Source of the DNA: a virus
IMG/VR virus record: IMGVR_UViG_3300028591_002545
Span: 1-38,660 of that record
DNA: 38,660 bases
Reading direction: 5' to 3' (one strand)
Shown: positions 1,068 to 28,364 of the stretch, in pieces
Layout of the letters: each line of letters begins with the position of its first letter
How positions within the stretch are numbered: position 1 is the first letter of the stretch
The notes under the pieces: generated by a model
Told to the model about the DNA's origin: nothing
The model's database searches: none
What the model saw: the letters and a program-made list of their open reading frames with translations, nothing else
Translations under genes and position numbers: made by a program

Positions 1068-2218
1068 ACGTCCAGCAGGTGAAACAGGCGGCACCGCGTT
1101 TCGACACGGCCTACCACCAGCGGCTCAACCTTCAGGCATGGGGTAGCGATAACCTCTACCCGCAACACCTGTCGAGGATTGCAGCCGCGAGTGGCACGGC
1201 CGAGCTGTGCCTGTCGCGCTTTTGCAAATTCATCGAGGGCAACGGGTTCATGGACGGCTTGGCCGGGAAGGAATTGAACGAGCAGGGTGACACGGCAGAT
1301 GATATTCTGCACCTCATCGCCCAAGATGTGGCCCGATATTCGGGTTTCGCCCTGCACGTCAACTACAACCTGCTTTGCGAGGTCACCGAGATTCATCATG
1401 TGCCGTTTGAACATTGTAGGTTGGAGGAATGTGACGATGCCGGCCATGTGCAGCACATCATCACCCATCCCGACTGGATAGGAAAGAAAACGAAGAACGG
1501 ACAGCGCATTGCGGTTGACGAGCAGCATGTCGAACACTTCAACGTTTTCAATCCGAACCATGAGGCCATTCGTGAACAAATCATGATGGCTGGCGGAATT
1601 GACTGCTACAACGGACAAATCCTTTGGTGTTCGATGGCGGGCAGAAACATCTACCCGACACCCATCTACGATGCTGTGATTTCCGACATGAGTACTGAGG
1701 AGGGCCTTGGTAATATCAAGAACCGAAATGCCCGCAACAACTTCTTGACATCGGCCATGCTCATCACCAAGCGTGGTGTTCCCAAGTTCGACCAGGACGG
1801 CAACGACATCAGCTCACCGACCATCACCCCTGAAGACTTGGCAGCGTTCCAGGGTGATGAGCGGGTTGGAAAACTGCTGCTTGTCGAATTGGAGAATGAC
1901 GAAGACAAACCCGAAGTCGTGCCGTTCACCGCAAACAACTACGACAAGGACTTCACCGCCACCGATGCATCAGTTATTGAGAGGATTTATGCGCAGTTCC
2001 ATCAGGAATTGTTCTATGCAATCCGCATCGGGAAACTTGGCTTCAGCGGTGACGTGATGGCCGATGCCTACACCTACTATGCGGGTGAGGTGACCATCGA
2101 ACAACGGTTCATATCTCGCGGCTTGTCACAGGTGCTTGCCGTTTGGCATGAGCCGATTTTGCGCAATGCAGACACAACGATTTTGAAAATCCAATATGCA
2201 GGGATGACCAATGTATAA
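1064..2218 (+). CDS. Putative portal protein
   Basis: 384-aa acidic ORF in the head/virion block, coupled to both neighbours. It is the only remaining candidate of portal-like size and composition. The assignment is positional and not verified. Confidence 0.4.
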   Translation: MNVQQVKQAAPRFDTAYHQRLNLQAWGSDNLYPQHLSRIAAASGTAELCLSRFCKFIEGNGFMDGLAGKELNEQGDTADDILHLIAQDVARYSGFALHVNYNLLCEVTEIHHVPFEHCRLEECDDAGHVQHIITHPDWIGKKTKNGQRIAVDEQHVEHFNVFNPNHEAIREQIMMAGGIDCYNGQILWCSMAGRNIYPTPIYDAVISDMSTEEGLGNIKNRNARNNFLTSAMLITKRGVPKFDQDGNDISSPTITPEDLAAFQGDERVGKLLLVELENDEDKPEVVPFTANNYDKDFTATDASVIERIYAQFHQELFYAIRIGKLGFSGDVMADAYTYYAGEVTIEQRFISRGLSQVLAVWHEPILRNADTTILKIQYAGMTNV

Positions 2219-11376: not shown

Positions 11377-11694
11377 ATGATAACGATTATCGAGCTTTTG
11401 AAAAAGTACAGGGAGGTGGTTATTAGCCGTTACAACCGCGCAAGCAAGCAGCACACATCCCTCAAGAACTTCATGAACCTGGTGATTAAGTTCTTCGATG
11501 AGCATCCTGGCATTACCCGCAAGTGTTTGAAGAAGGCCAATGCAGGTAGCACTCATGAGTTTATCTACCAACTCAACAAAGCTTGTGACTTCGCAGCTTA
11601 TGTGGCTGCTGCACCCGCACGCAGACAAAACGCAATCGAAAGATATAACAATGTCGCTGGAGCTGAAACTTTAAAGCATCAAAATTACCTTTAA
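11377..11694 (+). CDS. Hypothetical helical protein (moron gene 1)
   Basis: 105-aa ORF between its own promoter and the downstream HTH gene. Confidence 0.6.
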   Translation: MITIIELLKKYREVVISRYNRASKQHTSLKNFMNLVIKFFDEHPGITRKCLKKANAGSTHEFIYQLNKACDFAAYVAAAPARRQNAIERYNNVAGAETLKHQNYL

Positions 11695-11718
11695 TATTAA
11701 CCTAAAAATATATTTGTC

Positions 11719-12156
11719 ATGAGTTTAAGAAGTCCGAAAAACCCTTACAGGGTAGAGATTAATTATGACAAGCCACTGGAATTTGGCAACGTGTCAAGTT
11801 ACACGGGCGAAAGTGTTGAGAATGTGCTGCACCTTGCTATTGGTGAGATAAAGCGTAACAACACTTCAGCATACATCCGCATTTGGCACAATGATGCTGG
11901 ATTCCCCAACTTTGACTGGCAGATTGTGAGCGAGGCCTACTACAAGGCCAACGGAACCGAGGATGTGAACCGCAATATCGGCATCCGTATTGCCTGCCTC
12001 CGCCGTGAGGCTGGCCTCACCCAAACCCAGCTTGCCGACAAGTGCGGCATGGCACAACCCAACATCGCCCGCATCGAGGCTGGAACGTATGCCACCAGCA
12101 TCGACGTATTGAGCCGCATCGCCGAGGCATTGGGCAAACGTATTGAACTGGTATAA
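11719..12156 (+). CDS. Unknown N-terminal domain fused to a C-terminal XRE-type HTH (moron gene 2)
   Basis: C-terminal GLTQTQLADKCGMAQPNIARIEAG...IDVLSRIAEALG is a classic XRE HTH. The first ~85 aa match nothing I recognise. Confidence 0.7.
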   Translation: MSLRSPKNPYRVEINYDKPLEFGNVSSYTGESVENVLHLAIGEIKRNNTSAYIRIWHNDAGFPNFDWQIVSEAYYKANGTEDVNRNIGIRIACLRREAGLTQTQLADKCGMAQPNIARIEAGTYATSIDVLSRIAEALGKRIELV

Positions 12157-12182
12157 TGCAGTCCCTGCACCGACCAAAGCTG

Positions 12183-12208
12183 GAGCCGTAGTAATACGGC
12201 TCTTTTTT
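12183..12208 (+). terminator. Rho-independent terminator
   Basis: GAGCCGTA-GTAA-TACGGCTC followed by TTTTTT. Confidence 0.8.
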
Positions 12209-12317
12209 GTTATGTCGAAGAAAATGCCTACCTTTGCCGACATCACGTCGTGAGACGGCTACTTTAGTAATTTTATTTTGACCTGCCCCGGTGTAAATCG
12301 GGGCATTTTCGTACACT

Positions 12318-12336
12318 TTTGGTGCAACTTTGGTGC
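12318..12336 (+). repeat. Tandem pair of TTTGGTGC (11-nt register), left set
   Basis: TTTGGTGC at 12318-25 and 12329-36. The second copy continues as TTTGGTGCTATC; the right set contains TGCTATC. Confidence 0.8.
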
Positions 12337-12396
12337 TATCAAATATAAAACGAACCGCCAACCCGCTATCAATCAGCGGTTTGTGCGGCTCAATCA

Positions 12397-12414
12397 TGTT
12401 TAACCCTAAAGAAC
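12397..12414 (-). other. Candidate att core (reverse complement GTTCTTTAGGGTTAAACA)
   Basis: The 10-mer TAACCCTAAA at 12401-10 is the inverted copy of TTTAGGGTTA at 22387-96 and 22920-29. It lies midway between the two TTTGGTGC pairs, 170 nt upstream of int. Confidence 0.35.
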
Positions 12415-12519
12415 GGGGAATGTATAACGAAAGGGTAACGAATGGGTAGTTAGTAAGGGCGATTTCAGTTGTTCGGCATTGTCGAACTACCCAAACAATA
12501 CCATATTGTTATACTTTTT

Positions 12520-12538
12520 TTTGGTGCTATTTTGGTGC
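12520..12538 (+). repeat. Tandem pair of TTTGGTGC (11-nt register), right set
   Basis: TTTGGTGC at 12520-27 and 12531-38, 202 nt from the left set and in the same orientation. Confidence 0.8.
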
Positions 12539-12552
12539 TTGTGCTATCTTTG
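12520..12552 (+). promoter_or_regulatory. Bacteroidota-type promoter for the integrase gene
   Basis: TTTG at 12520-23 and TATCTTTG at 12545-52, 21 nt apart. ATG 12583 lies 30 nt downstream. Confidence 0.55.
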
Positions 12553-12582
12553 CAGCCGTTAACCCATTCAATCAAGGTCAAA

Positions 12583-13647
12583 ATGAAGAAACAATCGGTA
12601 ATACTGAGGAAGCGGAGAATGCCATCAGGCAACATGTCGCTCTACCTGTGCATCTATGCCGGTGGTGTGCGAACATACGAATATCTGCACCTGTATCTTT
12701 CGCCCGACAAACGGGACAAGGAGAAGAACCGCGAGACGATGATGCTTGCCGAGGCGATCTGCGCTAAGCGGCTGGTTGAAGTCCGCAACGGCCAGTATGG
12801 ATTCAAGGAAGCACAGGCCGTGCAGCTTCGTGACTATGTGCAGCGCATCACCGAAGACAAGCACGGCAGCACCAAGCGCAGGTATGACGCACTGGACAAC
12901 ATCCTCGCAGGGTATTGCCGACCATCCATGATGCTGACGGACATCACCCCGGCATGGTTCAGCGGATTCATGAACCACCTCGACAAGCAGGGCCTCGCCA
13001 AGAACACGCTGGCCGTATATGTGGCAACCATGCGCAGCATCATCAGCCAGGCACACAGGGAAGGGTTACTACCGACCAACCCAATTGTGGGTATCAAGGG
13101 CGTGGGATATGAGGAAACGAACCGCACCTACCTCACCACTGACGAGGTGCGGAAGCTGGCAGACACACCATGCCCCAACGAGGTCACCAAACGAGCCTTT
13201 TTGTTCGGGTGCCTGACTGGTCTGCGCAACTGCGACATCCGTGCTTTGACATGGGCCGATGTTCACGAACAAGACGGATATACCCGAATCATCTACCGCC
13301 AAGCCAAGACCAAAGGCCAAGAATATCTTGACATATCCGCACAGGCTGCATCGTTGATGGGTGAGCGAGGAAGTGATAATGAGCCAGTGTTCCCGCTGAT
13401 GAGCTGGCACGCAGTACGTCAGCAGCTGAAGGCTTGGGTTAAGAGAGCCAAAATCGCCAAGCACGTCACCTTTCACGCAAGCCGCCACACCTTTGCAGTG
13501 ATGATGTTGTCGGTCACCGACATCTACACCGTTTCAAAGCTGCTTGGGCATCGGGAACTATCCACAACGCAGGTCTATGCCAAAGTGCTTGACAAGGCCA
13601 AGCGGGAGGCCGTTGACAATATGCCCGATTTGCTGAAAACGCCATAA
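12583..13647 (+). CDS. int: Tyrosine site-specific integrase (Bacteroidota IntDOT-like, with N-terminal arm-binding domain)
   Basis: Start MKKQSVILRK. Arm-type N-terminus SLYLCIYAGGVRTYEYLHLYL. Catalytic residues in LTGLRNCDI (Arg), HASRHTFA (His-x-x-Arg) and LGHRELSTTQVYA (His, Tyr). The track ORF from TTG 12469 is rejected as the start. Confidence 0.9.
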   Translation: MKKQSVILRKRRMPSGNMSLYLCIYAGGVRTYEYLHLYLSPDKRDKEKNRETMMLAEAICAKRLVEVRNGQYGFKEAQAVQLRDYVQRITEDKHGSTKRRYDALDNILAGYCRPSMMLTDITPAWFSGFMNHLDKQGLAKNTLAVYVATMRSIISQAHREGLLPTNPIVGIKGVGYEETNRTYLTTDEVRKLADTPCPNEVTKRAFLFGCLTGLRNCDIRALTWADVHEQDGYTRIIYRQAKTKGQEYLDISAQAASLMGERGSDNEPVFPLMSWHAVRQQLKAWVKRAKIAKHVTFHASRHTFAVMMLSVTDIYTVSKLLGHRELSTTQVYAKVLDKAKREAVDNMPDLLKTP

Positions 13648-13762: not shown

Positions 13763-14032
13763 CTATTGTACCCGCGTGAGCGATTCTATAACCCTCTGCT
13801 GGCTCTCGATGATGGCCAGCAGCCTTGACACCGTGTCAGGTTCTCTCACTTCGGCTGGCGGCTCTGGTAGAATCTTTAACAGTCGGTTAATGGCTTCGAC
13901 CTGCACAGGCTTCGGCTTCGACACACCTGCTTCCCAATTTTGGATCGTGCGTGACGATACCCCCACGATTTGCGCCAACTCATTCTGCGAAAAACCGAGT
14001 CTATCCCTTGCTTGTTTCACGTCCATAGTCAC
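13763..14032 (-). CDS. XRE-family HTH protein co-transcribed with the repressor
   Basis: LGFSQNELAQIVGVSSRTIQNWEAG. Its start overlaps the stop of the upstream CI-like gene. Confidence 0.75.
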   Translation of the reverse strand: MTMDVKQARDRLGFSQNELAQIVGVSSRTIQNWEAGVSKPKPVQVEAINRLLKILPEPPAEVREPDTVSRLLAIIESQQRVIESLTRVQ

Positions 14033-14685
14033 ATCTTAATCTTCAACGACAACACATTCTCCACGATGAACAAGTGCCTGATGCTGGTCTTTGCGAGGCG
14101 CATATCATCGTATCTCTCATTCTCGCTGCGCAGTATGACGTAGTGCTGCTCGTCCTCATCTTTGCGCAGGTACTTGAGCAGTCGGTACTCGTCAGTGATG
14201 ACCAGGTACACCTGCCCGTAGAAAATCTCGCCAAGGTTCTTGACCTCCCGCACGGCTATCCAGTCACCGTCCTTGATGTGCGGCTCCATGCTGTCACCGT
14301 TGGCACGGATGATGGCGGCAGTCGGTGACACATTCGGCAGATTGACGTGGCCGATGATATGCTCATCAGCGAACACGATAGGCCGAGACAGGTCACCGCA
14401 GGTGGCATCAATGTTATAGACCGGGGTGCCATGCTCAGTGATTTCGACAACCTCTTTGGTTGACTGCTTTATCATTTCCCCATCGCCAGTCAATAACCAT
14501 GCGGCATTCAATCCAAACTCGTTTGCCCATTTTATGGCATTCTGCTTGCCAAAAGGTTTGCGCCCTGTTAAAAGGCTGTTTATCGCTTGTTTAGTAACAC
14601 CAAACCTCTTTGCAATTTCTTCTTGCGTCAAGCCCAAATTTGTTAGATACCTGCGCAATTCGTTTAGTCTTTCGTTTGCTTCCAT
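14029..14685 (-). CDS. CI-like repressor: HTH plus S24 (LexA-type) autopeptidase domain
   Basis: HTH LTQEEIAKRFGVTKQAINSLLTG. S24 Ser in ANGDSMEP and Lys in LLKYLRK. Divergent from the early operon. Confidence 0.9.
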   Translation of the reverse strand: MEANERLNELRRYLTNLGLTQEEIAKRFGVTKQAINSLLTGRKPFGKQNAIKWANEFGLNAAWLLTGDGEMIKQSTKEVVEITEHGTPVYNIDATCGDLSRPIVFADEHIIGHVNLPNVSPTAAIIRANGDSMEPHIKDGDWIAVREVKNLGEIFYGQVYLVITDEYRLLKYLRKDEDEQHYVILRSENERYDDMRLAKTSIRHLFIVENVLSLKIKM

Positions 14686-16867: not shown

Positions 16868-17815
16868 ATGAGTTTGTTCAAGAATCCCAACGAGTTGGAA
16901 ATCAACTCCACAATCAAGATGTTAGTTTATGGGCAGCCGGGTATCGGCAAAACCACGTTGGCCCTGTCATCACCTCAACCCGTCCTGTTTGACTTTGACG
17001 GTGGCATTTCCAGAGTAAACAAGGCGCATCAATGCCCAACCCTGCAAGTCAAGTCATGGGATGAGGCACTGGACGCACTGACCGAGCTGGAGAAGGGCGA
17101 AACCCCCTGCAAGACCATCGTCATTGACACGGCTGGAAAAATGTTAGACTTTATGTCTGACTATATCATGCGCAACGATCCAAAGATGAAGATGCGTGAC
17201 GGTTCACTTGCCCTGAAAGGCTATGGTCAGCGCAAGGTGATGTTCGTCAACCTAATCAAGCGCATCAGCCTCATGGGTAAGAACGTGGTATTCGTGGCAC
17301 ACGAGAAAGAGGACAAGGACGGAGAAACCCGCAGGGTACGACCAGACATGAGTGGCTCAAGCCTCGGTGACCTCATCAAAGAACTTGATCTTGTAGGCTA
17401 TATGCAAGCCTTCGGGCGTGAGCGCACCATCTGCTGGACCCCCAACGAGCAATATTATGCGAAGAACACCTGCAACCTGCCCGAATTTGAGAAGGTGCCC
17501 ATTATCATCGACCAGCATGGCGGCATCAGCGGCGATAATAATTTCCTTGCTAAGACATTCGCAAACTACGACACATATCTCAATGTTCAGGCGCAGATTG
17601 GCGAGGAATATAACAAACTGACCGAGCAGATTGCAGCCGACATTGCAGCCATTACCGATGCTGACGGTGCCAATGCATTCATCGTCAAGATTGATGATTA
17701 CGGCCATATCTGGGACAGCAAAGCAAAGGCCCGCAAGTGGTTCGGTGAACACATGGCCAAGATTGATAACGTGACCTACGACAAAAAGACCAAGCGTTAT
17801 GCAGCCAAGGATTGA
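16868..17815 (+). CDS. RecA-like ATPase (AAA_24 / Sak4-like recombination ATPase)
   Basis: Walker A GQPGIGKTT and Walker B TIVIDTAG. Followed by nuclease and SSB genes, as in phage recombination modules. Confidence 0.75.
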   Translation: MSLFKNPNELEINSTIKMLVYGQPGIGKTTLALSSPQPVLFDFDGGISRVNKAHQCPTLQVKSWDEALDALTELEKGETPCKTIVIDTAGKMLDFMSDYIMRNDPKMKMRDGSLALKGYGQRKVMFVNLIKRISLMGKNVVFVAHEKEDKDGETRRVRPDMSGSSLGDLIKELDLVGYMQAFGRERTICWTPNEQYYAKNTCNLPEFEKVPIIIDQHGGISGDNNFLAKTFANYDTYLNVQAQIGEEYNKLTEQIAADIAAITDADGANAFIVKIDDYGHIWDSKAKARKWFGEHMAKIDNVTYDKKTKRYAAKD

Positions 17816-18632
17816 TTATAGAATCTACCCGACTTTGCTCGATGCTTGGTGGAAGTATCAGAACCAAAAATTGGAGGATTTCTTCTACCAGGACGAGCAG
17901 GGTGGCTGGCACCTCAATTATAACGAGGCCGATGGCACATACCACTACTCGCAAGAGGAGATGGATGCCCTGCTGGAACAGGATTTAATCGACAAAATCA
18001 ACCGTGTTCCCACTGAGCCGAGCGAGGCCGCAAGCAAAGGCACTATCTTCAACGAGATTGTGGACTGCATCATCGAGCGCAGAGGGTGTCACCATGACGG
18101 CTGGACGGTTGAGAGTGTTGCCGACGAGAACGGCAAAAAAACCGCCATCCGTGGCGCACTGGACGGCTTTGAGTTCCTGTTCGATGCAGCCTTCTGCAAG
18201 AGCGTGGCCGCCTATTTCGCTGGTGCTTTGCCTCAGTACTACATCGAGGCCGTTCTGTCTGTGCGATACGGAAACGTGCTGCTCTATGGATGGATTGATG
18301 AACTGCGCAAGGATGTTGTCTATGACCTAAAGACCACCAAGCGTTACGAGTTCGGCAACTATGCCCACTACTGGCAAAGGCACGTCTATCCCTACTGCCT
18401 GATTGAGTCGGGCGACTCCAAGACCATCAAAGGCTTTGAGTTCACCGTCATCAAGTGGACTGGCGGCACCAAGTACAACCCCGTGTTGAGCGGTGAGATG
18501 TACAAGGAATACTACACCTACGACCACTGCGAATCGTCTGCCCTGATACGACAGGAGTGTGAAAGGTTCATCGAGTGGCTGGAGACCAATAGAGAGAAAA
18601 TTACGGACAAGAAAATTTTCAACGAGCAATGA
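17799..18632 (+). CDS. PD-(D/E)XK RecB-family nuclease
   Basis: IDELRKDVVYDLKTT (D...D-x-K) and QRHVY (QxxxY) motifs. Lies between the ATPase and SSB genes. Confidence 0.6.
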   Translation: MQPRIDYRIYPTLLDAWWKYQNQKLEDFFYQDEQGGWHLNYNEADGTYHYSQEEMDALLEQDLIDKINRVPTEPSEAASKGTIFNEIVDCIIERRGCHHDGWTVESVADENGKKTAIRGALDGFEFLFDAAFCKSVAAYFAGALPQYYIEAVLSVRYGNVLLYGWIDELRKDVVYDLKTTKRYEFGNYAHYWQRHVYPYCLIESGDSKTIKGFEFTVIKWTGGTKYNPVLSGEMYKEYYTYDHCESSALIRQECERFIEWLETNREKITDKKIFNEQ

Positions 18633-19039
18633 GCGTAAACAAAGCATTCATATTGGGACGTGTCGGCAAAGACCCGCAAGTGTCCCACATCAACGACACC
18701 AAGAAGGTATCGTTCAGCATGGCCACAACCGACAGGGGCTACACCAAGCAGGACGGCACCCAGGTGCCTGACCGTACCGAGTGGCACAACATCGTGGCAT
18801 GGCGCAGTCTGGCCGAGGTGTGTGAGAAATACGTCCGCAAGGGTGACCTCCTGTACATCGAGGGTAAGATTACCAACCGCTCCTGGGAAAAGGACGGCAC
18901 TACCCACTACATCACCGAAATCGTGGCAGAGGTGGTCGAGCTGTTCCCCAAGAACCAGTCAAACCAGAATCCTGCTCCACAACAGGAAAAGACTTGGGAA
19001 CCGGTACTGACACCCATCAACGATGATGAACCATTCTAA
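18629..19039 (+). CDS. ssb: Single-stranded DNA-binding protein
   Basis: OB-fold pattern NKAFILGRVGKDP...TEWHNIVAW...LYIEGKITNRSWE and the acidic tip NDDEPF. Confidence 0.9.
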   Translation: MSVNKAFILGRVGKDPQVSHINDTKKVSFSMATTDRGYTKQDGTQVPDRTEWHNIVAWRSLAEVCEKYVRKGDLLYIEGKITNRSWEKDGTTHYITEIVAEVVELFPKNQSNQNPAPQQEKTWEPVLTPINDDEPF

Positions 19040-19194
19040 TGGTGACTATTAGCAACAGCCAACGAGATCAGGCGGTGAGGTACTTGCAGGCACTCGCCGA
19101 ACTGGAGAGCGACAACCGGGAAATCAAGGTTGTGAACCTCTGCCGCCTTGCCCGTAGGCTCGCTAAACAACTTGAAAAACGAGAAAAGAAATGA
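19039..19194 (+). CDS. 51-aa micro-ORF
   Basis: MVTISNSQRDQAVRYLQALAELESDNREIKVVNLCRLARRLAKQLEKREKK. TAATG overlap with ssb and ATGA overlap with the initiator gene. Confidence 0.45.
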   Translation: MVTISNSQRDQAVRYLQALAELESDNREIKVVNLCRLARRLAKQLEKREKK

Positions 19195-19988
19195 ACGGCT
19201 GGATTAAGATATATCGCAAAATGCGCCAATGGCAGCACTACAAGACACCGAGCGTCCGCATGGTGTTTGAAGACCTGCTGCTTTCTGCGACAGGAATCAA
19301 AAGCACCTACAATGGTGTCGCACTGGTCGCTGGTGATGCGGTCTCATCCGTGGCCATTCTTCAACGCAACACAGGCCTTTCAAAGCCGACTATCATAAAA
19401 GCGATTAGAGTGCTGACCGAAAGCGGAGAAATCACCCGCAGGTTTGAAAACAATGTGGCCATCTACCACATCAACTCATTTTGCTTTTATCAGTTGCAAG
19501 GTGGTAAAAAAGATTTACCACATACCGAAAAAGGTGGTAAAAATATTTTACCGCAGGGGGTAAAACAAATTGACCACAGTGGTAAAACCATTTTACCCCA
19601 TATAAGAATAAAAGAAGATAATAAAGAAAATATTGTTGTTGCTGATACGCACGCACGCACGCGCGAGGAGTTCATTGCAGATGCACTCAATGACATGAGG
19701 GTTGAGCAAGGCTGCATGGCGATGGGGATAACACCAGAACAATATCGCCAACTCGTTACCGAGGTGACCAACGACTGGATATATCGCCAACTCCCCGACG
19801 ATGAGTGGACTCTTACCCACCTGCTGGCGCAGATGCGAATCAAACACAACATAAACAACCGTAACAATGGAAACAATCAACAAACTGGTAGTGCAGACAG
19901 CATCCGGGCGAAACTTGACCAAGATGCAGCCAAAGCGATGGCCACACTTGCAAGCCGCATCGGACAGCCTACTGAAGTGCCATTCTAA
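19191..19988 (+). CDS. Replication initiator / replisome organiser-like protein carrying the origin
   Basis: N-terminal WIKIYRKMRQW...winged-helix-like region. The central part is encoded by the iterons (GGKKDLPHTEKGGKNILPQGVKQIDHSGKTILPH), as in the lambda O arrangement. Confidence 0.6.
   Translation: MNGWIKIYRKMRQWQHYKTPSVRMVFEDLLLSATGIKSTYNGVALVAGDAVSSVAILQRNTGLSKPTIIKAIRVLTESGEITRRFENNVAIYHINSFCFYQLQGGKKDLPHTEKGGKNILPQGVKQIDHSGKTILPHIRIKEDNKENIVVADTHARTREEFIADALNDMRVEQGCMAMGITPEQYRQLVTEVTNDWIYRQLPDDEWTLTHLLAQMRIKHNINNRNNGNNQQTGSADSIRAKLDQDAAKAMATLASRIGQPTEVPF
19500..19599. repeat. Four 22-bp iterons (candidate ori), followed by an AT-rich tract to about 19640
   Basis: GGTGGTAAAAAAGATTTACCAC (19500), GGTGGTAAAAATATTTTACCGC (19533), GGGGGTAAAACAAATTGACCAC (19556), AGTGGTAAAACCATTTTACCCC (19578). 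Each is an inverted GGTAAAA/TTTACC. They are followed by ATATAAGAATAAAAGAAGATAATAAAGAAAATATT. Confidence 0.7.
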
Positions 19989-20499: not shown

Positions 20500-21177
20500 A
20501 TGATTATGAAAAAATTGATTTTAACAGCTATCGCAATGTTGGCACTCAATGCCAACGCAGAGTCGGCCATCTACACCGACGAGTTTATTAGGTTGAATCC
20601 CGGCACCGCCGAGATGACGCTTACCATCAGCATGACCACCGACAGGCCGTGTGACCGATGGATGTTTGACCTGGTGCTGCCTGAAGGCATCAAGCCAATA
20701 TCCGTCACCCAGCTTGACGGAATGACACTGACCTATGCAGGTGACACTTTACAGGCTCCCTTGTGTGTGTCGCAAGACATGGCAACCATCACGTCATTCG
20801 TCGGGATCAACCAATATTGGAATGCCGCCACAAACACGATTGAAAACGGAGTGTATAAGTGGCAAGCTGGAAAACACGAACTGATGGAGATTACCTTTTC
20901 GGTGGCTCCCGATTTCCGCTTCTCGGTGATGTTCCTCTACGGCATCATCGACAATGGAAGTACCGATGTACGGTTCTTCAGCCCCTGCAACATCAGTGTT
21001 GGCTACGAGCGCGGTGACGTGAACGGTGACGGCCATGTGAGCATTGCCGATGTGTCGGCTATAATTGACCACCTGCTGGGTGGGGAACTTGACGAGTTCC
21101 AGCGTGAGGCTGCCGATGTGACCACCGACGGAGAGATTACTATTGGAGATGTAACCGCTTTAATTGATTTGCTATGA
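20500..21177 (+). CDS. Secreted protein with C-terminal dockerin-type double repeat
   Basis: Signal peptide MKKLILTAIAMLALNANA. DVNGDGHVSIADVSAIIDHLL and DVTTDGEITIGDVTALIDLL are dockerin/EF-hand-like repeats. The N-terminal beta-rich domain is possibly cohesin-like. Confidence 0.7.
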   Translation: MIMKKLILTAIAMLALNANAESAIYTDEFIRLNPGTAEMTLTISMTTDRPCDRWMFDLVLPEGIKPISVTQLDGMTLTYAGDTLQAPLCVSQDMATITSFVGINQYWNAATNTIENGVYKWQAGKHELMEITFSVAPDFRFSVMFLYGIIDNGSTDVRFFSPCNISVGYERGDVNGDGHVSIADVSAIIDHLLGGELDEFQREAADVTTDGEITIGDVTALIDLL

Positions 21178-21648: not shown

Positions 21649-21863
21649 CAATAATCATAAATGACTGTAACAACCACTGCACCAAGACGTGGCATAATTG
21701 GGATAATAGGCCTATTCCGCAGGTGGGAGACTTGCTGATTATACACTTTGGTGACTATAACGAGATTGCACAACAGGCAAAAGTGGTTGCCCGTGTGTTT
21801 GATGGCACAAGACCAGATATGGTTTTTCTAACAACTGATTACGAGAAAGGAGGCGAACAATGA
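21645..21863 (+). CDS. Hypothetical 72-aa protein
   Basis: Starts and ends within the repeated junction GAGAAAGGAGGCGAACAATGA. Confidence 0.55.
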   Translation: MTIIINDCNNHCTKTWHNWDNRPIPQVGDLLIIHFGDYNEIAQQAKVVARVFDGTRPDMVFLTTDYEKGGEQ

Positions 21864-22255
21864 GAGACAGTGATTACTACCCTGCCGGGGCATACAACGA
21901 TCCAAACGCGCCCTACAACGAAGTCGATACACCAGACATCGAGGTGGCGTGCCATGTGTCGGTTAATCTGGTCAAGGATGTGCCCGTGATGACCGACCAG
22001 TACATTACCGAATACGACGAGGAAGATGGAAGCCGCCACACTGAATTGATTGCATCTTACTCGGACATGGAGACCGAGTACCGCAAGCAGCACATGTCAG
22101 TTCCTGAGCTGCTCATGGAACTTGCCAAGTACATCAATGGCGAATTGGCTGGCGGCGTCACAGGTTCCCGCAAATGGGAACTGCAAGATATGCTTGCCGA
22201 CTGCCAAGGGTGGAAGGAGGAGTTCTTGGAGATAGAAGAATTTGAGCCCGCATGA
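21860..22255 (+). CDS. Hypothetical acidic protein
   Basis: 131 aa; the last gene before the long non-coding region. Confidence 0.6.
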   Translation: MRDSDYYPAGAYNDPNAPYNEVDTPDIEVACHVSVNLVKDVPVMTDQYITEYDEEDGSRHTELIASYSDMETEYRKQHMSVPELLMELAKYINGELAGGVTGSRKWELQDMLADCQGWKEEFLEIEEFEPA

Positions 22256-22284
22256 GCAATGCGAAAGTGAGTTTTTTCATGGCG

Positions 22285-22346
22285 CCGCCAAGTCACCAAG
22301 CGTGGTTATGCCCTGATGGTATCGTAGGCTGATACTGGCGGTTTTT
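22285..22346 (+). terminator. Branched hairpin followed by T5
   Basis: CCGCCAAGT (22285-93) pairs with ACTGGCGG (22334-41) with one bulge. There are inner small hairpins, followed by TTTTT 22342-46. Confidence 0.5.
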
Positions 22347-22437
22347 AAGAAGACACTGATTAATTTTTCTTCATATTGTTGTTTTTTTTAGGGTTAAACA
22401 ACCACCATGACCTGCGAAGGCAAATGGTGGAAACATC

Positions 22438-22514
22438 ACCGAGCTGACGGATTCAGCGAACATTGCATAGGGAGCCGTAGAGAACGGCAGAATAACCCGC
22501 CTGTCGTGACAGGC
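22438..22514 (+). repeat. Three-hairpin module, copy 1
   Basis: ACCGAGCTGACGGATTCAGCGA ... GGG-A-GCCGT-AGAGA-ACGGC-AGAATAA-CCC-GCCTGT-CGTG-ACAGGC. Confidence 0.85.
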
Positions 22515-22696
22515 AGTGAATTAGCAACTATTATTAACGCGCGGACATAAGAACGCGACCTTACCGTAGTTGCCTTCACACAGAGAGTCATTTTCCACGA
22601 TGTCGGGAGGTTTCGGCCTCCCAACCCATCACAGCAGGGGGTGAGAGTGGTGACACCTCACAGGAAACAAAAGCCTCGCACCCCTGCTGACACAAA

Positions 22697-22779
22697 ACCG
22701 AGCTGACGGATTCAGCGATGTTTTACAAAGATTGGGAGTCACAGCGAGTGACGGAAGAACCCGCCTGTCGCGTACAGGC
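22697..22779 (+). repeat. Three-hairpin module, copy 2
   Basis: ACCGAGCTGACGGATTCAGCGA ... GGG-A-GTCAC-AGCGA-GTGAC-GGAAGAA-CCC-GCCTGT-CGCGT-ACAGGC. Confidence 0.85.
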
Positions 22780-23002
22780 TCACGCAAGTTGGTACCCGAA
22801 AAATCGGTGCATCGCATCTTGTCTTCTAAAACAACGGGGGAGCAATCCCCCACACGAGAGGCCCTGGTTGGGCTGGCCGCATTAAAGTGTTAGATAGTTA
22901 ATTAGTTTCATTTTGGTTCTTTAGGGTTAGTGTTTCGTCGCGGTCATGGGGGTTCAATTCCCCTGCTCTTGCCTAAGATTATTGATTTTAAATTACGAGA
23001 AT

Positions 23003-23464
23003 ATGATTATGGAAACGAAAGTATGTACCAAGTGCGGGCGCGAGTTGTCCGTCAAGGATTTTTATCTTCACAACAAGAAAGATGGCCGCCGCCGCAATGT
23101 GTGCAAGCATTGTTACATAGAGCGTCAGAGCATCACGGGCGCAGTGGTGAAGCATCGCGTCAAGCTGCACCCTGCCAAACCAGAGGGCGAGCCAAAGAAG
23201 AAACGTGTTGCAAACGGGCAGGGTGATAGAAGCCAGTACACTCACAAGTACTACATCACCCACAAGGCCAAACTGAAAGCCAAGAATGCAGCCGACTATA
23301 TCAAGCGAAGGCTTGACATTGAGGTGGAGCGACAGGTGAACATCCCGACTGGCCGCACCTGCAAGGACAGCTGTATATATTACCAGTGTTTCACGGGCAT
23401 AGAAAACATCGAGTCGAACCTTTCCGTGACTTGTCACGGATTCAAAGAAAGAACCAATGCTTAA
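23003..23464 (+). CDS. Zinc-ribbon protein (possible transcription activator)
   Basis: CTKCGRELSVKDFYLHNKKDGRRRNVCKHCY (CxxC...CxxC), a basic centre and a second Cys cluster near the C-terminus. ATG 23003 is chosen over the track start 22946. Confidence 0.6.
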   Translation: MIMETKVCTKCGRELSVKDFYLHNKKDGRRRNVCKHCYIERQSITGAVVKHRVKLHPAKPEGEPKKKRVANGQGDRSQYTHKYYITHKAKLKAKNAADYIKRRLDIEVERQVNIPTGRTCKDSCIYYQCFTGIENIESNLSVTCHGFKERTNA

Positions 23465-23811: not shown

Positions 23812-24660
23812 ATGAGACCAGAGTTACAAAAAAAAGTAGAGTTTGGCATCAAACTGATACAGGCTGGAGCGCAGAAAGCAGCCGAGGTCGGTCAGCCGAT
23901 AGAGATAGCCTATTCAGGCGGCAAGGATAGCGACTGCATCCTTGAGTTAGCGAAGATGGCAGGCGTTAATTACCGAGCCATCTACAAGAACACCACCATC
24001 GACCCACCGGGCACTATCAAACACTGCAAGGAGAAAGGCGTGGAAATAGTAAATCCGAGTTTGTCTTTCTTTAAAATAGTAGAAAAAGAATCTCCACCAA
24101 CAATGAGGGCAAGAATTTGCTGCAAGCACCTCAAAGAATATAAAATCCTTAATGTTTCAGTCCAAGGCATAAGAAGATGCGAAAGCGAAAAGAGAAAAGA
24201 GAACTATCAAGAACCAACAATTTGCAGAACATATGGCAGCAAGAAGAACGCAGTAGAGGTGTTTCTTCCAATCTTGCAATGGGATAACGAAGATGTCAAG
24301 AACTTTGTTGAAGATAGAGGCATTAAGTGCCATCCTCTATACTACGATGATCAAATGAACTTTCACGTTGAGCGCAGATTAGGGTGTCTTGGATGCCCAT
24401 TAAAGAGTGATAGAGGCGTATCGGATTATAAGCGTTATCCAAAGTTGCTAAAGCAACTGGTTATAGCAACAAAAAAATGGTTAGAAACACATCCTGATGC
24501 AGAAAGCGCAACAAAGTTTGGAGACGCATATCGAATAACATACCACAATCTTTTTTGCAAGTCTTATGAAGATTTTCAGTATAGGATGCAACCGACATTG
24601 TTTGGAGACATACCTGACTGTAGAAAACTTCTTGAAGATTATTTCGGCATTGAACTATGA
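23812..24660 (+). CDS. PP-loop ATPase of the PAPS-reductase family
   Basis: PP-loop IAYSGGKDSDCILE and C-terminal RLGCLGCPL (CxxC). The composition changes sharply inside the gene. Confidence 0.8.
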   Translation: MRPELQKKVEFGIKLIQAGAQKAAEVGQPIEIAYSGGKDSDCILELAKMAGVNYRAIYKNTTIDPPGTIKHCKEKGVEIVNPSLSFFKIVEKESPPTMRARICCKHLKEYKILNVSVQGIRRCESEKRKENYQEPTICRTYGSKKNAVEVFLPILQWDNEDVKNFVEDRGIKCHPLYYDDQMNFHVERRLGCLGCPLKSDRGVSDYKRYPKLLKQLVIATKKWLETHPDAESATKFGDAYRITYHNLFCKSYEDFQYRMQPTLFGDIPDCRKLLEDYFGIEL

Positions 24661-25187
24661 CAATGAAACTACAAGACCTACAACCGACACGCCACTACGT
24701 CATCGGCATTGATCCCGACGTGGAGAAGAACGGCGTGGCTATCGTTGAGAAAGAAACCAAGCGTCTTGAATGTGCCGCACTGACATTCGCCGACACGTTG
24801 AACTACCTGCAATGGGTTGCTCAACGAGCAGCAGAGACAGGCGCACATGTCAAGGTCTATGTCGAGGCTGGGTGGCTGAACCGCACGAACTGGCACCTGA
24901 CCAAATGGGACAACCGAGGCCAGGTCGTGGCAAAGGGTGTATCCCAGGGGCGTAACGAACAGGTCAGCCGTCTGCTGGGCGAGATGTGCGAAGCCTACGG
25001 ACTGGACTGGCAATACATCAAGCCGCTGCACAAGTGTTGGCGCGGGCCGAACCGAAAAATCACACACGAGGAACTGTGTGCCGTCACTGGCCTTGTGTAC
25101 GGCAGAACGAACCAGGAAATGCGGGATGCGGCACTCATCGCATGGGTGGCGGCTGGCCTCCCGGTGCGGCTGACGAGAAAACGATAG
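24657..25187 (+). CDS. RuvC-like Holliday-junction resolvase
   Basis: Acidic catalytic pattern VIGIDPDVEKNG, VYVEAGW and EMRDAALIAW. Confidence 0.65.
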   Translation: MTMKLQDLQPTRHYVIGIDPDVEKNGVAIVEKETKRLECAALTFADTLNYLQWVAQRAAETGAHVKVYVEAGWLNRTNWHLTKWDNRGQVVAKGVSQGRNEQVSRLLGEMCEAYGLDWQYIKPLHKCWRGPNRKITHEELCAVTGLVYGRTNQEMRDAALIAWVAAGLPVRLTRKR

Positions 25188-25387: not shown

Positions 25388-25395
25388 TATATTTG
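25388..25395 (+). promoter_or_regulatory. -7 box TATATTTG upstream of the methyltransferase/terminase operon
   Basis: Exact TAnnTTTG match 113 nt before ATG 25509. No clear -33 element. Confidence 0.5.
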
Positions 25396-25508: not shown

Positions 25509-26756
25509 ATGGAGAACGTTCAAAATATATCAATAACAAAGCTGGAGTTGAACAATGGGCAGGTCGAAGGCTTGCCCAAGAACCCCCGCTTTATCCGTGA
25601 CGAACGGTACAAGGCACTGGTCAAATCCATCGAGGACGCACCCGAAATGCTGCGGCTGCGTGAACTGCTGGTCGTGGAGCATGGCAGCAAGTTCGTTGTC
25701 ATCGGCGGCAATATGCGTCTGCGCGCCTGTAAGGAGTTGGGCATGGAGACCGTCCCCTGCAAGGTCTTGCCTGCCGACACACCCGTTGCCAAACTGCGAG
25801 AGTATGCCATCAAGGACAACAACGGCTTCGGTGAGGACGATTGGGACATCCTTGCCAACGAGTGGGATGCCGAGGAACTGCAAGACTGGGGCATGGAGTT
25901 GCCGATGGATTGGGATGTGGAAAGCAGCGAGGACGAGATAGAACGCAAGGCTCGTGAGTTCCAAGAGCGCATGGAGGCTGGCGAAATTGACGAGGACGAT
26001 GAGGAATACCAAGAGTTTCTTGAAAAATTCAAACTCAAAAAGACCACCGATGACTGCTATACCCCTGCCGTTGTCTATGAGGCCGTGGCGAATTGGGTGA
26101 GCGAAACGTACAGGATAGACCGCAAACACTTTGAACGTCCGTTCTATCCCGGTGGCGATTACCAAAAAGCAGACTACCCGAAAGGCTGCGTGGTGGTGGA
26201 TAATCCCCCGTTCTCAATACTTGCCGAAATTACAAGATTTTACAAGAAACACAATATCCGGTTTTTCTTGTTTGCGCCACGCATCAGTAATTTAAGTGTT
26301 GCAAGTTCGCAAGGTTTTACGAATTTGTGCGTTGGTGCGGGTATTACCTACGATAATGGGGCGATAGTTCCTACCTCATTCATTACAAATATTGAAAGCG
26401 ATTATATTGCCAAATCTTCGCCAAGTCTATACAAAGCAGTAACTGAAGCCAATGAAAAGGTGCAGGCTGGGCTTCATCGCCAAATTCCAAAATACGAATA
26501 TCCCAATGCTGTTGTTACTGCTGCAATGTTAAGCAAGTACAGCAAATATGATGTTGAGTATGGAGTGAAGTTCAACGAATGCAGGTACATCAGCGAACTT
26601 GATGCACAAAAGAAAGTTGGCAAGGCAATCTACGCAGGTGGGTTGCTTGTCAGCAACGACAAAGCGGCAGAGAAAGCAGCGGCAGAGAAAGCAGCGGCAA
26701 CTCAATGGCCTTTGAGTGAAAGGGAAGAAAAAATAATCGCTGAATTGTCGCAGTAA
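25509..26756 (+). CDS. ParB/Srx-like N-terminal domain fused to a DNA methyltransferase
   Basis: ParB-like LPKNPRFIRDERYKALVKSIED and VIGGNMRLRACKELG. Methyltransferase motif IV VVVDNPPFS. C-terminal AAEKA repeat. Confidence 0.8.
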   Translation: MENVQNISITKLELNNGQVEGLPKNPRFIRDERYKALVKSIEDAPEMLRLRELLVVEHGSKFVVIGGNMRLRACKELGMETVPCKVLPADTPVAKLREYAIKDNNGFGEDDWDILANEWDAEELQDWGMELPMDWDVESSEDEIERKAREFQERMEAGEIDEDDEEYQEFLEKFKLKKTTDDCYTPAVVYEAVANWVSETYRIDRKHFERPFYPGGDYQKADYPKGCVVVDNPPFSILAEITRFYKKHNIRFFLFAPRISNLSVASSQGFTNLCVGAGITYDNGAIVPTSFITNIESDYIAKSSPSLYKAVTEANEKVQAGLHRQIPKYEYPNAVVTAAMLSKYSKYDVEYGVKFNECRYISELDAQKKVGKAIYAGGLLVSNDKAAEKAAAEKAAATQWPLSEREEKIIAELSQ

Positions 26757-27160
26757 TGGCTAACGATGACAACCTCAAATCGTTGGGAGACCGAACAACG
26801 GAAGAACAACGAGAGATAGCAAGGCAAGGCGGCAAGGCCAGCGGACGTTCCCGCCGCCGCAAGCGTCAGTTCCGAGACGAACTGGAGATGCTGCTGCCGC
26901 TGACCGACAAGGGCAAGGACGGGCAACCCATCATCAACCCGCTCACTGGCCGCAAGCAGACCGTCCAGCAGTCCATCACGATGCAGTTGCTACTGAAGGC
27001 TCGCAAGGGCGATGTAAAGGCGGCAAAACTGATACTCGACACGCTGGGCGAACTGGTCATCAAAGAGGAACACAAGCACGAAATCGAGGGCGGCATGGTC
27101 ATCGTCACGGCTGACGAGATGGAAAAATCTGCACTGAAGAAGATGAAGGATGAGGATTAA
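26756..27160 (+). CDS. terS: Terminase small subunit (putative)
   Basis: 134 aa with basic N-terminus EQREIARQGGKASGRSRRRKR, directly upstream of and overlapping terL. Confidence 0.55.
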   Translation: MANDDNLKSLGDRTTEEQREIARQGGKASGRSRRRKRQFRDELEMLLPLTDKGKDGQPIINPLTGRKQTVQQSITMQLLLKARKGDVKAAKLILDTLGELVIKEEHKHEIEGGMVIVTADEMEKSALKKMKDED

Positions 27161-28364
27161 CGGCAACGACATAACGGGCAAGACGATTGCAGGGGTGACG
27201 GCAAACGAACTGGCGAAGGGGACACGACTCATCGCCAACAAGGGCGGCACCCGTTCAGGCAAGACGTACAGCATCTTGAAGATGATGCTGAACATTGCCC
27301 TATACATCCCCCGCACGTTTGACGTGGTGAGTGAGTCGCTGCCGCACCTCAAACGTGGTGCATTGCACGACTTTGAGGAAATCATCGCCGCCAACGACCA
27401 GCTTGTTGAAGGCCGCAACTACGAACTGAACCGCACCGACCGCATCTATTCGTTCCCCAACGGGAGCGAGATACGTTTCTTCGCTGCCGACAACTGGGGC
27501 AAGGTCAAAGGCTCACGCAGGGACATCCTGTTTGTGAACGAGGCCAACCGCATAGACTGGGAGGTGTTCCGTCAGTTGGATGTGCGCACGACACGCAACA
27601 TCATCATCGACTGGAACCCCGATAGCGAGTTCTGGTATGAACAACAAGGACTGAGCGGACGTGAAGACACCACCGAGATAGTGACAACATACTTGGATAA
27701 TCCCTACTTGGGTGAGACGCAGATTGCGGCGATTGAGGCCTACCGCACGGATGAGCGTTGGTGGAAGGTGTACGGACTTGGCGAGACTGGCAACCGCAAG
27801 GGCCTTATCTACACCGATTGGGAACAATGCAAGGACATCCCCGCCAATGCCCGACTGGTTGGTCGTGGCCTTGACTTCGGTTATCAGGCAGACCCGACCA
27901 GCATCGTGGCGGTGTACATCATGGACGGGGAGTTGTATATTGACGAGGAGTTGTACGCCCCCGGCCTCACCAATGACCGCATCGCCAAGTCGCTGACCGG
28001 GAAGAACGGCCCGATCGTGGCCGATAGTGCCGAGCCAAAGTCCATTGCCGAACTGCGCAACTACGGTGTGCGCAACATCGAGCCATCGGTCAAGGGTGCC
28101 GACTCGGTGCGCAACGGCATCCAGGTAGTGCAACGATACAAGCTGCACGTCACGCAACGCTCACTAAACATCATCCGTGAACTGCGCAACTACCGATGGG
28201 CCGAGGACAAGGTGACGGGTGAGTTGAAGAACGAGCCGGCCAAGAGCGAACACTTCGACCATGCGCTGGATGCACTGCGTTACTTGGTCATGGCCAAGCT
28301 GCAACAGCGCAGAACAGGCACGGCAAAGTACAACCCGACTTATCTATACCAGTATGGACAATAA
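27150..28364 (+). CDS. terL: Terminase large subunit (PBSX/Terminase_3-like)
   Basis: Walker A GGTRSGKT and Walker B ILFVNEA. Nuclease half with GLDFGY...DPTSIVAV and DSAEPKSIAELR. Confidence 0.9.
   Translation: MRINGNDITGKTIAGVTANELAKGTRLIANKGGTRSGKTYSILKMMLNIALYIPRTFDVVSESLPHLKRGALHDFEEIIAANDQLVEGRNYELNRTDRIYSFPNGSEIRFFAADNWGKVKGSRRDILFVNEANRIDWEVFRQLDVRTTRNIIIDWNPDSEFWYEQQGLSGREDTTEIVTTYLDNPYLGETQIAAIEAYRTDERWWKVYGLGETGNRKGLIYTDWEQCKDIPANARLVGRGLDFGYQADPTSIVAVYIMDGELYIDEELYAPGLTNDRIAKSLTGKNGPIVADSAEPKSIAELRNYGVRNIEPSVKGADSVRNGIQVVQRYKLHVTQRSLNIIRELRNYRWAEDKVTGELKNEPAKSEHFDHALDALRYLVMAKLQQRRTGTAKYNPTYLYQYGQ

Follow-up and report, generated by a model that had tools for sequence, protein, structure and literature searches.

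The window analysed here, the whole 38,660-nt IMG/VR virus record IMGVR_UViG_3300028591_002545, is the genome of a temperate siphophage (portal, TerL, tape measure, integrase and repressor genes), and between two of its + strand genes it carries a structured element, on the + strand, free of open reading frames (ORFs) and at least 570 nt long (about 22400-22973; about 315 nt in relatives with a single module), in which two copies of a three-hairpin module are followed by a tRNA-like cloverleaf. The element represents a family of structured RNAs that had not been described before and that has few examples in current collections; comparison of the copies supports its structure well. That the modules act as RNA structure we regard as highly probable; about even confidence is given to the fuller proposal that the element is a previously undescribed structured non-coding RNA of phages, probably released from a longer transcript through RNase P cleavage at its tRNA-like handles, with the first hairpin of the module (hairpin a) as a contact surface.

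Compensatory change in a repeated three-hairpin module

A preliminary description of this stretch had named two modules of ~80 nt with three hairpins each, 259 nt apart, and all of the parts that it listed were recovered (Table 1). Re-reading of the sequence confirmed an exact 22-mer, ACCGAGCTGACGGATTCAGCGA, in both modules, which holds hairpin a (GCTGA/TCAGC) and is followed by a variable linker (12 nt in module 1 vs 17 nt in module 2), GGG-A, hairpin b, a 7-nt purine joiner, CCC and hairpin c; an exact 13-mer, AACCCGCCTGTCG, is likewise present in both. Hairpin b is GCCGT-AGAGA-ACGGC in module 1 and GTCAC-AGCGA-GTGAC in module 2, with three of the five pairs doubly changed. The chance expectation of an exact 22-mer repeat in 38.7 kb is about 4e-5 (arithmetic), and the alignment of module 1 with module 2 scored far over shuffles (z = 11.2).

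The proposal that pairing is conserved where sequence is not was borne out by eight module copies from six distinct metagenomic phage loci, in which the four helices (a, b, c and GGG/CCC) are maintained (homologous loci carry L numbers and are described below). In a seven-copy alignment on the structure first proposed, 97% of cells were paired and 10 of the 19 pairs were doubly changed, with a covariation score of 0.446 compared to 0.144 +/- 0.032 for shuffles, the observed values being attained by none of 500 shuffles; controls in which pairing partners were slid by 1-3 columns gave only 21-46% pairing. A covariance model made from the modules (R1; 86.9 bits on module 1, 102.8 bits on module 2) was used to search for further copies and found one in L294, on which it had not been trained, at 60.3 bits. 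With this eighth copy included, pairing stood at 96.1% of cells, with 22 doubly changed cells and 10/19 pairs doubly changed; again, none of 500 shuffles attained these values.

Hairpin b occurs with six kinds of stem (GCCGU/ACGGC, GUCAC/GUGAC, GUCGC/GCGAC, GUUGG/CCAAC, GCAU/AUGC and GCGC/GCGC) and hairpin c with four (GCCUGU, ACCAGU, GUGGGA and GGUGA), while the GGGA 5' of b, the b loop AGNG(A), the joiner RGAAKAR and the CC(C) after the joiner are kept in all copies. The 22-mer has at most one base changed across eight full copies (counting L283, the sequence of which is the same as the window), and is near-invariant although the surrounding sequence is only about 75% identical; in the second b/c unit of L135 a T arm stands where the 22-mer would be. 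Module 2 of the window and the single module of L136/L121 are 92% identical except for a fully compensated hairpin b, and their substitutions cluster, with six in hairpin b, all compensatory, and others in one small tail hairpin.

Folding of single modules recovered the three hairpins and the GGG/CCC helix with unremarkable z-scores (-2.0 and -0.7), so thermodynamics alone would not pick out the modules. Three further contacts were considered and rejected: a closing helix around hairpins a, b and c, which is available in module 1 only; a kissing interaction between the b and c loops, which shows no covariation (by eye); and a pairing of GAUUGGG with the D-like arm of the cloverleaf, proposed by RNAalifold, which is impossible in module 1 and in L135.

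The core of the element had been correctly placed by the preliminary description, whereas the locus itself runs to about 570 nt or more, up to a tRNA-like terminus that the description did not mention. The G-rich hairpins that it noted downstream of each module are also present (22605-22622 and 22836-22851), but its suggestion that a whole ~260-nt unit was duplicated fails, as the ~175-nt tails after the modules are unrelated: they align less well than the average shuffle (z = -0.9). It follows that the two G-rich hairpins are not homologues and that the repeat is confined to the module.

The only ORFs running across the modules (47 and 55 aa) are not conserved among the homologues: L286 lacks the ATG in the 5' hairpin P0, neither L117 nor L286 has the one that follows hairpin a, and the reading frames diverge past the 22-mer. 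With no conserved ORF, the locus is shown to be non-coding at the level of sequence comparison.

A tRNA-like cloverleaf on the + strand

Downstream of module 2 the minimum free energy fold is a four-way junction with covarying pairs, and free-energy folding alone gives this junction both in the window and in L117. It is a four-arm cloverleaf with an acceptor, a D-like arm, a long arm and a T arm (Table 1), in which the T-loop reads UUCAAUU, UUCGAUC or UUCGACU (consensus UUCRAUY) and the D-like loop, (C/U)GGUU, contains GG. The acceptor strands lie about 110 nt apart in the window and 67 nt apart in L285. In place of the 5-bp stem and 7-nt loop of an anticodon arm there is a 6-bp arm with a loop of 5-59 nt (5 nt, CGAUG, in L285; 31 nt in L117; 59 nt in the window), so this arm tolerates insertions and has no anticodon loop.

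Pairing of the cloverleaf was 100% in five copies, with compensatory and G.U changes (alternations of C-G/U.G, G-C/G.U and C-G/U-A; T stems GGGGG/CCCCU, GAUGG/CCAUU and GGCGG/CCGCC). In eight copies 100% of 149 cells were paired and seven pairs were doubly changed, figures that are somewhat flattering as this alignment was fitted to the model. A covariance model built from the five copies (R2) matched untrained sequence at L135 13228-13349 (33.7 bits), L135 11389-11526 (25.3 bits) and L294 485-603 (31.2 bits), and also picked up the true tRNA-Ala of L135 (17.4 bits). A further R2 copy, L135 13011-13099 (17.1 bits), lies at the position that hairpin a of module 2 occupies in the window.

Read on the opposite strand, the G.U pairs of the cloverleaf would become A.C mismatches, which puts the RNA on the + strand, where the flanking genes also lie. 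The helix of tail B, between module 2 and the cloverleaf, likewise has + strand G.U (RNAalifold on L136/L117/L286), and it is the wobble pairs of these two parts that show the strand of the predicted RNA to be +. The preliminary description had argued from the modules that their conserved pairing speaks for RNA or single-stranded DNA and not for a duplex palindrome; + strand RNA is indeed favoured, through the cloverleaf, but the argument as first made is weaker, as the module stems have no wobble pairs.

The cloverleaf is not an ordinary tRNA or tmRNA. ARAGORN reported no tRNA in the window, L001, L117, L136 or L121, and the Rfam tRNA model RF00005 (gathering score 29 bits) gave no match in the window, L117, L136, L285 or L286; on L001 it reached 19.4 bits at most, under the 29-bit cut-off and in a different register. 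A tmRNA had been raised as a candidate by the T arm and a CUGGAU-like 5' part, and was ruled out: the two acceptor strands lie close together, a tag frame is lacking, ARAGORN found none, and the Rfam tmRNA model matched only 22949-22963 (15 nt of the T arm) at 12.9 bits, compared to the 47 bits required.

Homologous loci and the origin of the two-module form

Homologues were collected by exact-pattern scans and by look-ups of neighbouring proteins, which gave six distinct loci besides the window. Two modules are present in L135 (also recorded as L001 and L287), a single 32.7-kb viral contig; one module is present in L136 and L121 (identical within the locus), L117, L286 and L294, and L285 comprises the 3' part only. 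Other matches of the IMG/VR pattern scan (CTTACCRTAGTTGCCT, CTGACGGATTCAGCG, GGGGGAGCAATCCCCC and GAGGCCCYGGTTGGGCTGG) apart from L001 were judged by a BLAST filter to be chance. An 18-mer scan of 185,579 species genomes gave 16 matches, all chance, and found no prophage or host, and blastn/megablast against 50,697 deposited phage genomes gave no match except to the tRNA-Ala of L135. Most related contigs reached through neighbouring proteins (PAPS-reductase-like, Zn-ribbon ORF and 'DGFPV' ORF) were without the RNA (L155-L162, L284, L289-L293 and L295-L298); weak R1 matches in L159/L160 were dismissed as they apparently lie in coding sequence.

The single-module loci correspond to the window sequence 5' of module 1 joined to the window sequence 3' of module 2. 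The extra stretch of the window, the rest of module 1 and tail A, starts and ends in the shared 22-mer and is homologous to unit 1 of L135 (75% over 177 nt), while the sequence from module 2 onward is 92% identical to L136. As unit 1 resembles L135 and unit 2 resembles L136, the two-module form reflects two alleles joined at the 22-mer, with no recent tandem duplication. The genes up- and downstream differ between homologous loci, which shows a cassette-like spread of the element.

Relatives have one module or two, along with as many as three tRNA-like elements and a true tRNA. In the second b/c unit of L135 a tRNA-like element lies 5' of b, where the window has hairpin a, and the T arm of that element (GCCG-UUCAAUU-CGGC) aligns in register with hairpin a and is followed by the same CAAAG linker. 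The hairpin 5' of the tRNA-Ala in L135 is the hairpin 5' of the 22-mer in L294, and trailers CCAAAG(A/U)UUAUUGAUU recur 3' of tRNA-like elements. On this evidence the locus resembles a series of tRNA-derived units with a b/c pair after each, and hairpin a may be a remodelled T arm.

Within 2 kb, L135 carries three anticodon-less tRNA-like elements (11389-11526, 13011-13099 and 13228-13349) and a tRNA-Ala(CGC) at 11674-11747. This tRNA is preceded by a hairpin resembling hairpin c (CCGUCCUGUCGUGAGACACGG), and its trailer CAAGUUUUAGAUAG recurs after the last tRNA-like element. The L135 ORF at 12033-12818, which ends at the 22-mer, encodes an unusual phage protein of low complexity, with an extended stretch of GYGD/GSGY-type repeats (GGCTATGGCGATGGC...).

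A proposed processing model for the RNA

Neither an exact Bacteroidetes-type -7 box (TAnnTTTG) in 22256-23009 nor a + strand terminator between the modules and the next gene was found, which suggests that the RNA is probably processed out of a longer transcript. In the model that we favour, the locus would be transcribed on the + strand like its neighbours, probably within a longer message, and then cut out. The basic unit, which occurs alone in relatives, has the order P0, 22-nt hairpin a, GGG-[b]-purine joiner-CCC, hairpin c, tail hairpin, capped GC hairpin and tRNA-like cloverleaf, and the phage of the window has a second, different unit (module 1 and tail A) spliced in at the shared 22-mer.

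The cloverleaf retains the features that are measured by RNase P and other tRNA enzymes, namely 6+5 stacked acceptor/T pairs (12 layers with the intervening G.G or G.A position), the T-loop UUCRAUY and the D-loop GG; the decoding features are lost. It is most likely a handle for RNase P (possibly for RNase Z/CCA) that serves in processing and stabilising. Cleavage would leave the module RNA with the capping hairpin as its protected 3' end. In the module, a protein or RNA partner would probably be contacted by hairpin a together with the conserved unpaired purines, and hairpins b and c would be scaffolds free to vary in sequence.

Several observations weigh against this model. The terminator-like hairpin upstream of the element (22284-22346) would require read-through or a non-canonical promoter. 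No partner was found for hairpin a, as the complementarity of the 22-mer within the RNA is weak, G.U-rich and not conserved. Both the ends of the transcript and its cleavage by RNase P are predictions. The comparison covers only six distinct loci, several of them close kin, such that the shuffle statistics overstate independence, and the alignments A8 and A9 were fitted to the models. In the module itself, G.U pairs make up 0 of 152 cells (19 pairs, eight copies) and no one-sided variation occurs in the pairs of the eight copies, in contrast to the adjoining tRNA-like element, which is rich in G.U/G-C alternations; without wobble pairs the module alone fixes no strand, and its arms are also perfect DNA palindromes. 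Three hairpin-b pairs change together between near-identical relatives, a pattern that resembles replacement or template switching more than the stepwise evolution of an RNA. The lack of wobble pairs in the module could stem from template-switch mutation, selection on both strands or cassette replacement.

Alternative explanations

The modules might instead form a cis-acting leader RNA for the downstream genes, either a processive antitermination element like HK022 put or a tandem riboswitch-like sensor, and we consider this unlikely. The put-type RNA of HK022 consists of two stems just 3' of the promoter and works in cis on RNA polymerase, overcoming terminators further downstream; in the present locus neither a canonical promoter box nor downstream terminators were found. 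The tandem modules recall putL/putR or tandem riboswitches, their conserved unpaired nucleotides resemble a binding core, and the locus shares the strand of its neighbours, has the replication/recombination genes on one side and the packaging block on the other, and shows no terminator before the next gene. However, the downstream gene varies: the window has a Zn-ribbon endonuclease-like ORF there, L136, L117 and L285 have one of 52 aa, and L135/L294 have an 87-aa 'DGFPV' ORF that is followed by replication-type genes; a full tRNA-like element always stands between the modules and this gene; and the likely promoter box of the packaging operon lies 2.4 kb further on, at 25388. Membership of a riboswitch or leader class thus failed on the varying downstream genes, on the absence of a + strand terminator after the modules and on Rfam, where no riboswitch or leader model matched even at E <= 10.

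A further reading, also doubtful, is that the locus would represent a new 'ornate' class of phage RNA built from tRNA-derived units, with hairpin a as a remodelled T arm. Besides being processing handles, the cloverleaves would then be decoys or sponges for host factors that bind the elbow and acceptor of tRNAs, such as defence nucleases or toxins directed against tRNA, enzymes of CCA addition or modification, or RNase P; alternatively, the b/c module would be a new self-cleaving or ligand-binding RNA. Were the decoy or the new b/c RNA real, it would be an RNA-based host-takeover or anti-defence device in phages of Bacteroidota.

There is a slighter chance that the locus works as DNA, as sites for dimeric proteins, parts of a replication origin or folded single-stranded DNA signals. 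Every module stem is a perfect palindrome without wobble, the geometry is operator-like (5-6 bp arms around 4-5 bp centres), the 22-mer is invariant as would be expected of a protein site, and AT-rich stretches are nearby; the locus is also the largest ORF-free region noted and lies about 2.3 kb downstream of a DnaD/O-like initiator gene. Yet hairpins a, b and c are mutually unlike. Hairpins b and c do not share a sequence, and they vary among near-identical phages, so one protein could not recognise them all. What is conserved is asymmetric (1 nt vs 7 nt between GGG/CCC and b; the loop AGNGA), the adjoining helices of tail B and cloverleaf need + strand G.U, and the T-loop and D-loop signatures are features of RNA.

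Given similarly little weight is the explanation that the locus is a functionless remnant of a decaying phage tRNA array, its stems kept or regenerated by template switching in quasi-palindromes and not by selection. Template switching can create and maintain hairpins (PMC8794818), and it would suit the multi-pair switches without wobble intermediates; the L135 locus shares a true tRNA-Ala and several tRNA-like elements, the same trailers recur after tRNA-like elements, and hairpin a aligns with the T arm of one of them. Decay does not sit well with a 22-mer that is the same or one base off in all eight full copies when the surroundings are about 75% identical, nor with the conserved loop, joiner and flanks, and the 100% pairing of the cloverleaf through wobble and compensatory changes is unexplained by template switching.

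That the module is an undescribed self-cleaving ribozyme, cutting the transcript together with the tRNA-like handles, is very improbable: a compact junction of several helices, in which unpaired nucleotides are invariant and stems covary freely, does recur here in non-coding phage sequence beside tRNA-like genes (a typical setting of small ribozymes), but the hammerhead, twister, twister-sister, pistol, hatchet and HDV-like models gave no match at E <= 10 and no closing helix joins the three hairpins in all copies. A type III toxin-antitoxin RNA (ToxI-like), in which short head-to-tail repeats adjoin an endoribonuclease toxin gene, does not fit, as the copies are 259 nt apart with unrelated spacers, the relatives are single-copy and no toxin family is present among the genes neighbouring the locus.

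Relation to known RNAs

Rfam 15 gave no match in the whole window at gathering score, and at E <= 10 only chance-level matches in 22200-23050 and in L001, L117, L136, L285, L286 and L294. The nearest kin by context are ROOL and GOLLD, which like the present element are several hundred nt long with many helices, phage- or prophage-encoded and often beside tRNA islands; the same setting, a phage location with a tRNA nearby, is found here, with a tRNA-Ala and tRNA-like elements in the same L135 locus. GOLLD sometimes has tRNAs within its linker (PMC12286853), and ROOL and GOLLD are of unknown function. The present locus differs from both in matching neither Rfam model even at E <= 10, in its helix plan, in consisting of repeated modules that end in a degenerate tRNA-like fold instead of standing beside ordinary tRNAs, and in a host lineage that appears to be Bacteroidota.

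In terms of proposed mechanism, the closest comparisons are with phage RNAs processed by RNase P and with eukaryotic and organellar tRNA-like elements that form RNA ends. Substrates of RNase P include phage M3 RNA, P1/P7 C4 antisense RNA, tmRNA and viral tRNA-like structures, C4 and M3 being small RNAs freed from tRNA-resembling precursors by tRNA-processing enzymes (PMC11143913). In plant mitochondria, mRNA ends are defined by tRNA-like 't-elements', where a non-decoding tRNA-like fold sets the end of the neighbouring RNA via RNase P/RNase Z (PMC1920247). The present element has no sequence relation to the C4, M3 or T4 RNAs, its handle is a full four-arm cloverleaf apart from the core, and its processing is predicted. 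The stable RNAs of the T4 tRNA cluster are likewise released by tRNA-processing enzymes. In MALAT1-mascRNA and the MHV68 tRNA-miRNA units, a tRNA-like fold defines the end of the adjacent RNA via RNase P/RNase Z, and the MHV68 order of a tRNA-like element followed by two hairpins is also that of L135 13011-13160. The t-elements, MALAT1-mascRNA and MHV68 are, however, eukaryotic or organellar systems, and we know of no bacterial or phage example of this tRNA-like processing architecture.

With tRNAs and the tRNA-like domain of tmRNA the cloverleaf shares the acceptor, D-like, long and T arms, UUCRAUY and the D-loop GG, and in L135/L294 an ACCA end; it differs from a tRNA in lacking the 7-nt anticodon loop and in the G.G or G.A mismatch that closes the acceptor, and from tmRNA in lacking a tag reading frame and pseudoknots. 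YrlA, a bacterial Y RNA, is non-coding, has a tRNA-mimicking domain and is also found in phages (PMC4201824), but the tRNA-like part of the present element is 3'-terminal and not closed by a Ro-binding stem, with no Rfam match, and a scan of roughly 28 window ORFs showed no Ro60/Rsr (TROVE) gene.

Phage structured RNAs beside tRNA genes (GOLLD, ROOL and the T4 stable RNAs) are long-standing puzzles with few families known. The present locus adds a compact family with defined helices, a modular core (an invariant 22-nt hairpin and two freely covarying hairpins) and tRNA-like ends that have lost their decoding features, at a size small enough for direct tests. Should the tRNA-like elements release the RNA, bacterial viruses would have a counterpart to the strategy of MALAT1-mascRNA and the t-elements, and the locus would offer a way into the search for further tRNA-punctuated non-coding RNAs in viromes.

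Other parts of the locus and genome context

P0, an inverted repeat, is conserved in four loci (window, L136, L117 and L286) with changes confined to its loop. Tail A is found in two-module loci only; it is homologous to L135 12898-13010 (75% over 177 nt) and unrelated to tail B. Its long-range helix (GUGAA/UUCAC and GCAACU/AGUUGC, 22516-22529 with 22568-22579) is kept in L135 (RNAalifold), and it also holds an inner hairpin, the conserved CCACGAUGUC, the GGGAGG/CCUCCC hairpin and a long hairpin at 22632-22689. In tail B, the inner hairpin is compensated between the window (CCGA/UCGG) and L136 (CCGU/ACGG). The capping hairpin, directly 5' of the tRNA-like element, is present in all six loci covering that stretch, with the loop ACAU in L285/L286.

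The motif TTTAGGGTTA(AAC), usually TTTAGGGTTAAAC, has three exact copies in the window compared to 0.84 expected; the first is conserved in L136, L117 and L286, and the second is missing in L117 and L285. It may be a non-canonical promoter (leaderless for the third copy) or a regulator site.

Directly after the ORF 21860-22255 stands the branched terminator-like hairpin. Its 3' arm, with an AT-rich stretch and CCACCA, is a paralogue of the long arm and insertion of the tRNA-like element; R2 aligns 22320-22425 weakly (9.2 bits), and the stretch is conserved in L117/L136. UGGCGGU can pair with the upstream GCCGCCA or the downstream ACCACCA, and CCACCAU can pair with AUGGUGG. Such competing pairings make alternative structures possible.

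Table 1. Positions of the parts of the RNA locus and of selected genes in the window.
Feature	Position	Strand	Details
Region without long ORF	22256-23008		flanked by + strand ORFs 21860-22255 and 23009-23464
Branched terminator-like hairpin	22284-22346	+	GCCGCCA ... UGGCGGU, then U5
TTTAGGGTTA copy 1	22387-22396	+	5 nt 5' of P0
5' hairpin P0	22402-22430	+	CCACCAU ... AUGGUGG
Module 1	22438-22514	+	
22-mer, module 1	22438-22459	+	ACCGAGCTGACGGATTCAGCGA
Hairpin a, module 1	22443-22457	+	
GGG-A, module 1	22470-22473	+	GGG 22470-22472
Hairpin b, module 1	22474-22488	+	
Joiner, module 1	22489-22495	+	AGAAUAA (DNA AGAATAA)
13-mer, module 1	22494-22506	+	AACCCGCCTGTCG
CCC, module 1	22496-22498	+	
Hairpin c, module 1	22499-22514	+	
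Tail A	22516-22696	+	
G-rich hairpin in tail A	22605-22622	+	GGGAGG/CCUCCC
Module 2	22697-22779	+	
22-mer, module 2	22697-22718	+	ACCGAGCTGACGGATTCAGCGA
Hairpin a, module 2	22702-22716	+	
GGG-A, module 2	22734-22737	+	GGG 22734-22736
Hairpin b, module 2	22738-22752	+	
Joiner, module 2	22753-22759	+	GGAAGAA
13-mer, module 2	22758-22770	+	AACCCGCCTGTCG
CCC, module 2	22760-22762	+	
Hairpin c, module 2	22763-22779	+	
Tail B	22780-22835	+	helix GCAAGUU/AUCUUGU, 22784-22790 with 22816-22822, then UCUUCUAAAACAAC
Capping hairpin	22836-22851	+	GGGGGA-GCAA-UCCCCC, GNRA loop
tRNA-like cloverleaf	22855-22973	+	
Acceptor	22855-22860 with 22966-22971	+	CGAGAG/CUCUUG
D-like arm	22861-22873	+	GCCC-UGGUU-GGGC
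Long arm	22875-22880 with 22940-22945	+	GGCCGC/GCGGUC, 6 bp
Long-arm insertion	22881-22939	+	59 nt, AT-rich
TTTAGGGTTA copy 2	22920-22929	+	inside long-arm insertion
T arm	22948-22964	+	GGGGG-UUCAAUU-CCCCU
TTTAGGGTTA copy 3	12401-12410	-	4 nt before ATG of ORF 12397..12017, beside integrase
Portal	1064-2218		
Integrase	12469-13647		
S24/HTH repressor	14029-14685	-	
Sak4	16868-17815		
SSB	18629-19039		
DnaD/O-like loader	19191-19988		
Dockerin-domain ORF	20500-21177		
131-aa ORF	21860-22255	+	
Zn-ribbon endonuclease-like ORF	23009-23464	+	
PAPS-reductase-like gene	23812-24660		
Holliday-junction resolvase-like gene	24657-25187		
ParB-like gene	25509-26756		
TerL	27150-28364		
Tape measure	32878-35976		

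Matches of the portal protein, none above 48% identity, are confined to phages of Bacteroides, Phocaeicola, Parabacteroides and other Bacteroidota, and the window appears to be a gut or rumen phage of Bacteroidota type with a host lineage in the Bacteroidota. A Firmicutes host, considered on account of Shine-Dalgarno-like sites and the dockerin ORF, was dropped because of these portal matches. Type I dockerin proteins occur near the RNA locus in the window, in L290 and L291 and at the start of L294, and are unexpected alongside a portal of Bacteroidota-phage type.

Exact TAnnTTTG boxes lie at 14741 (+) and 14782 (-), at the repressor/early switch, at 25388 (+), in the gap 5' of the ParB-like gene and terminase, and at 36253 (+), 5' of a protease gene, which suggests that they mark the starts of early and late transcripts.

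The 131-aa ORF upstream of the locus is missing in L117, L136 and L121. Its junction lies inside ATGAGAGA|GATAGAAGAAT (L117 281-310; reverse strand in L136), as if the interior had been deleted or inserted between short repeats.

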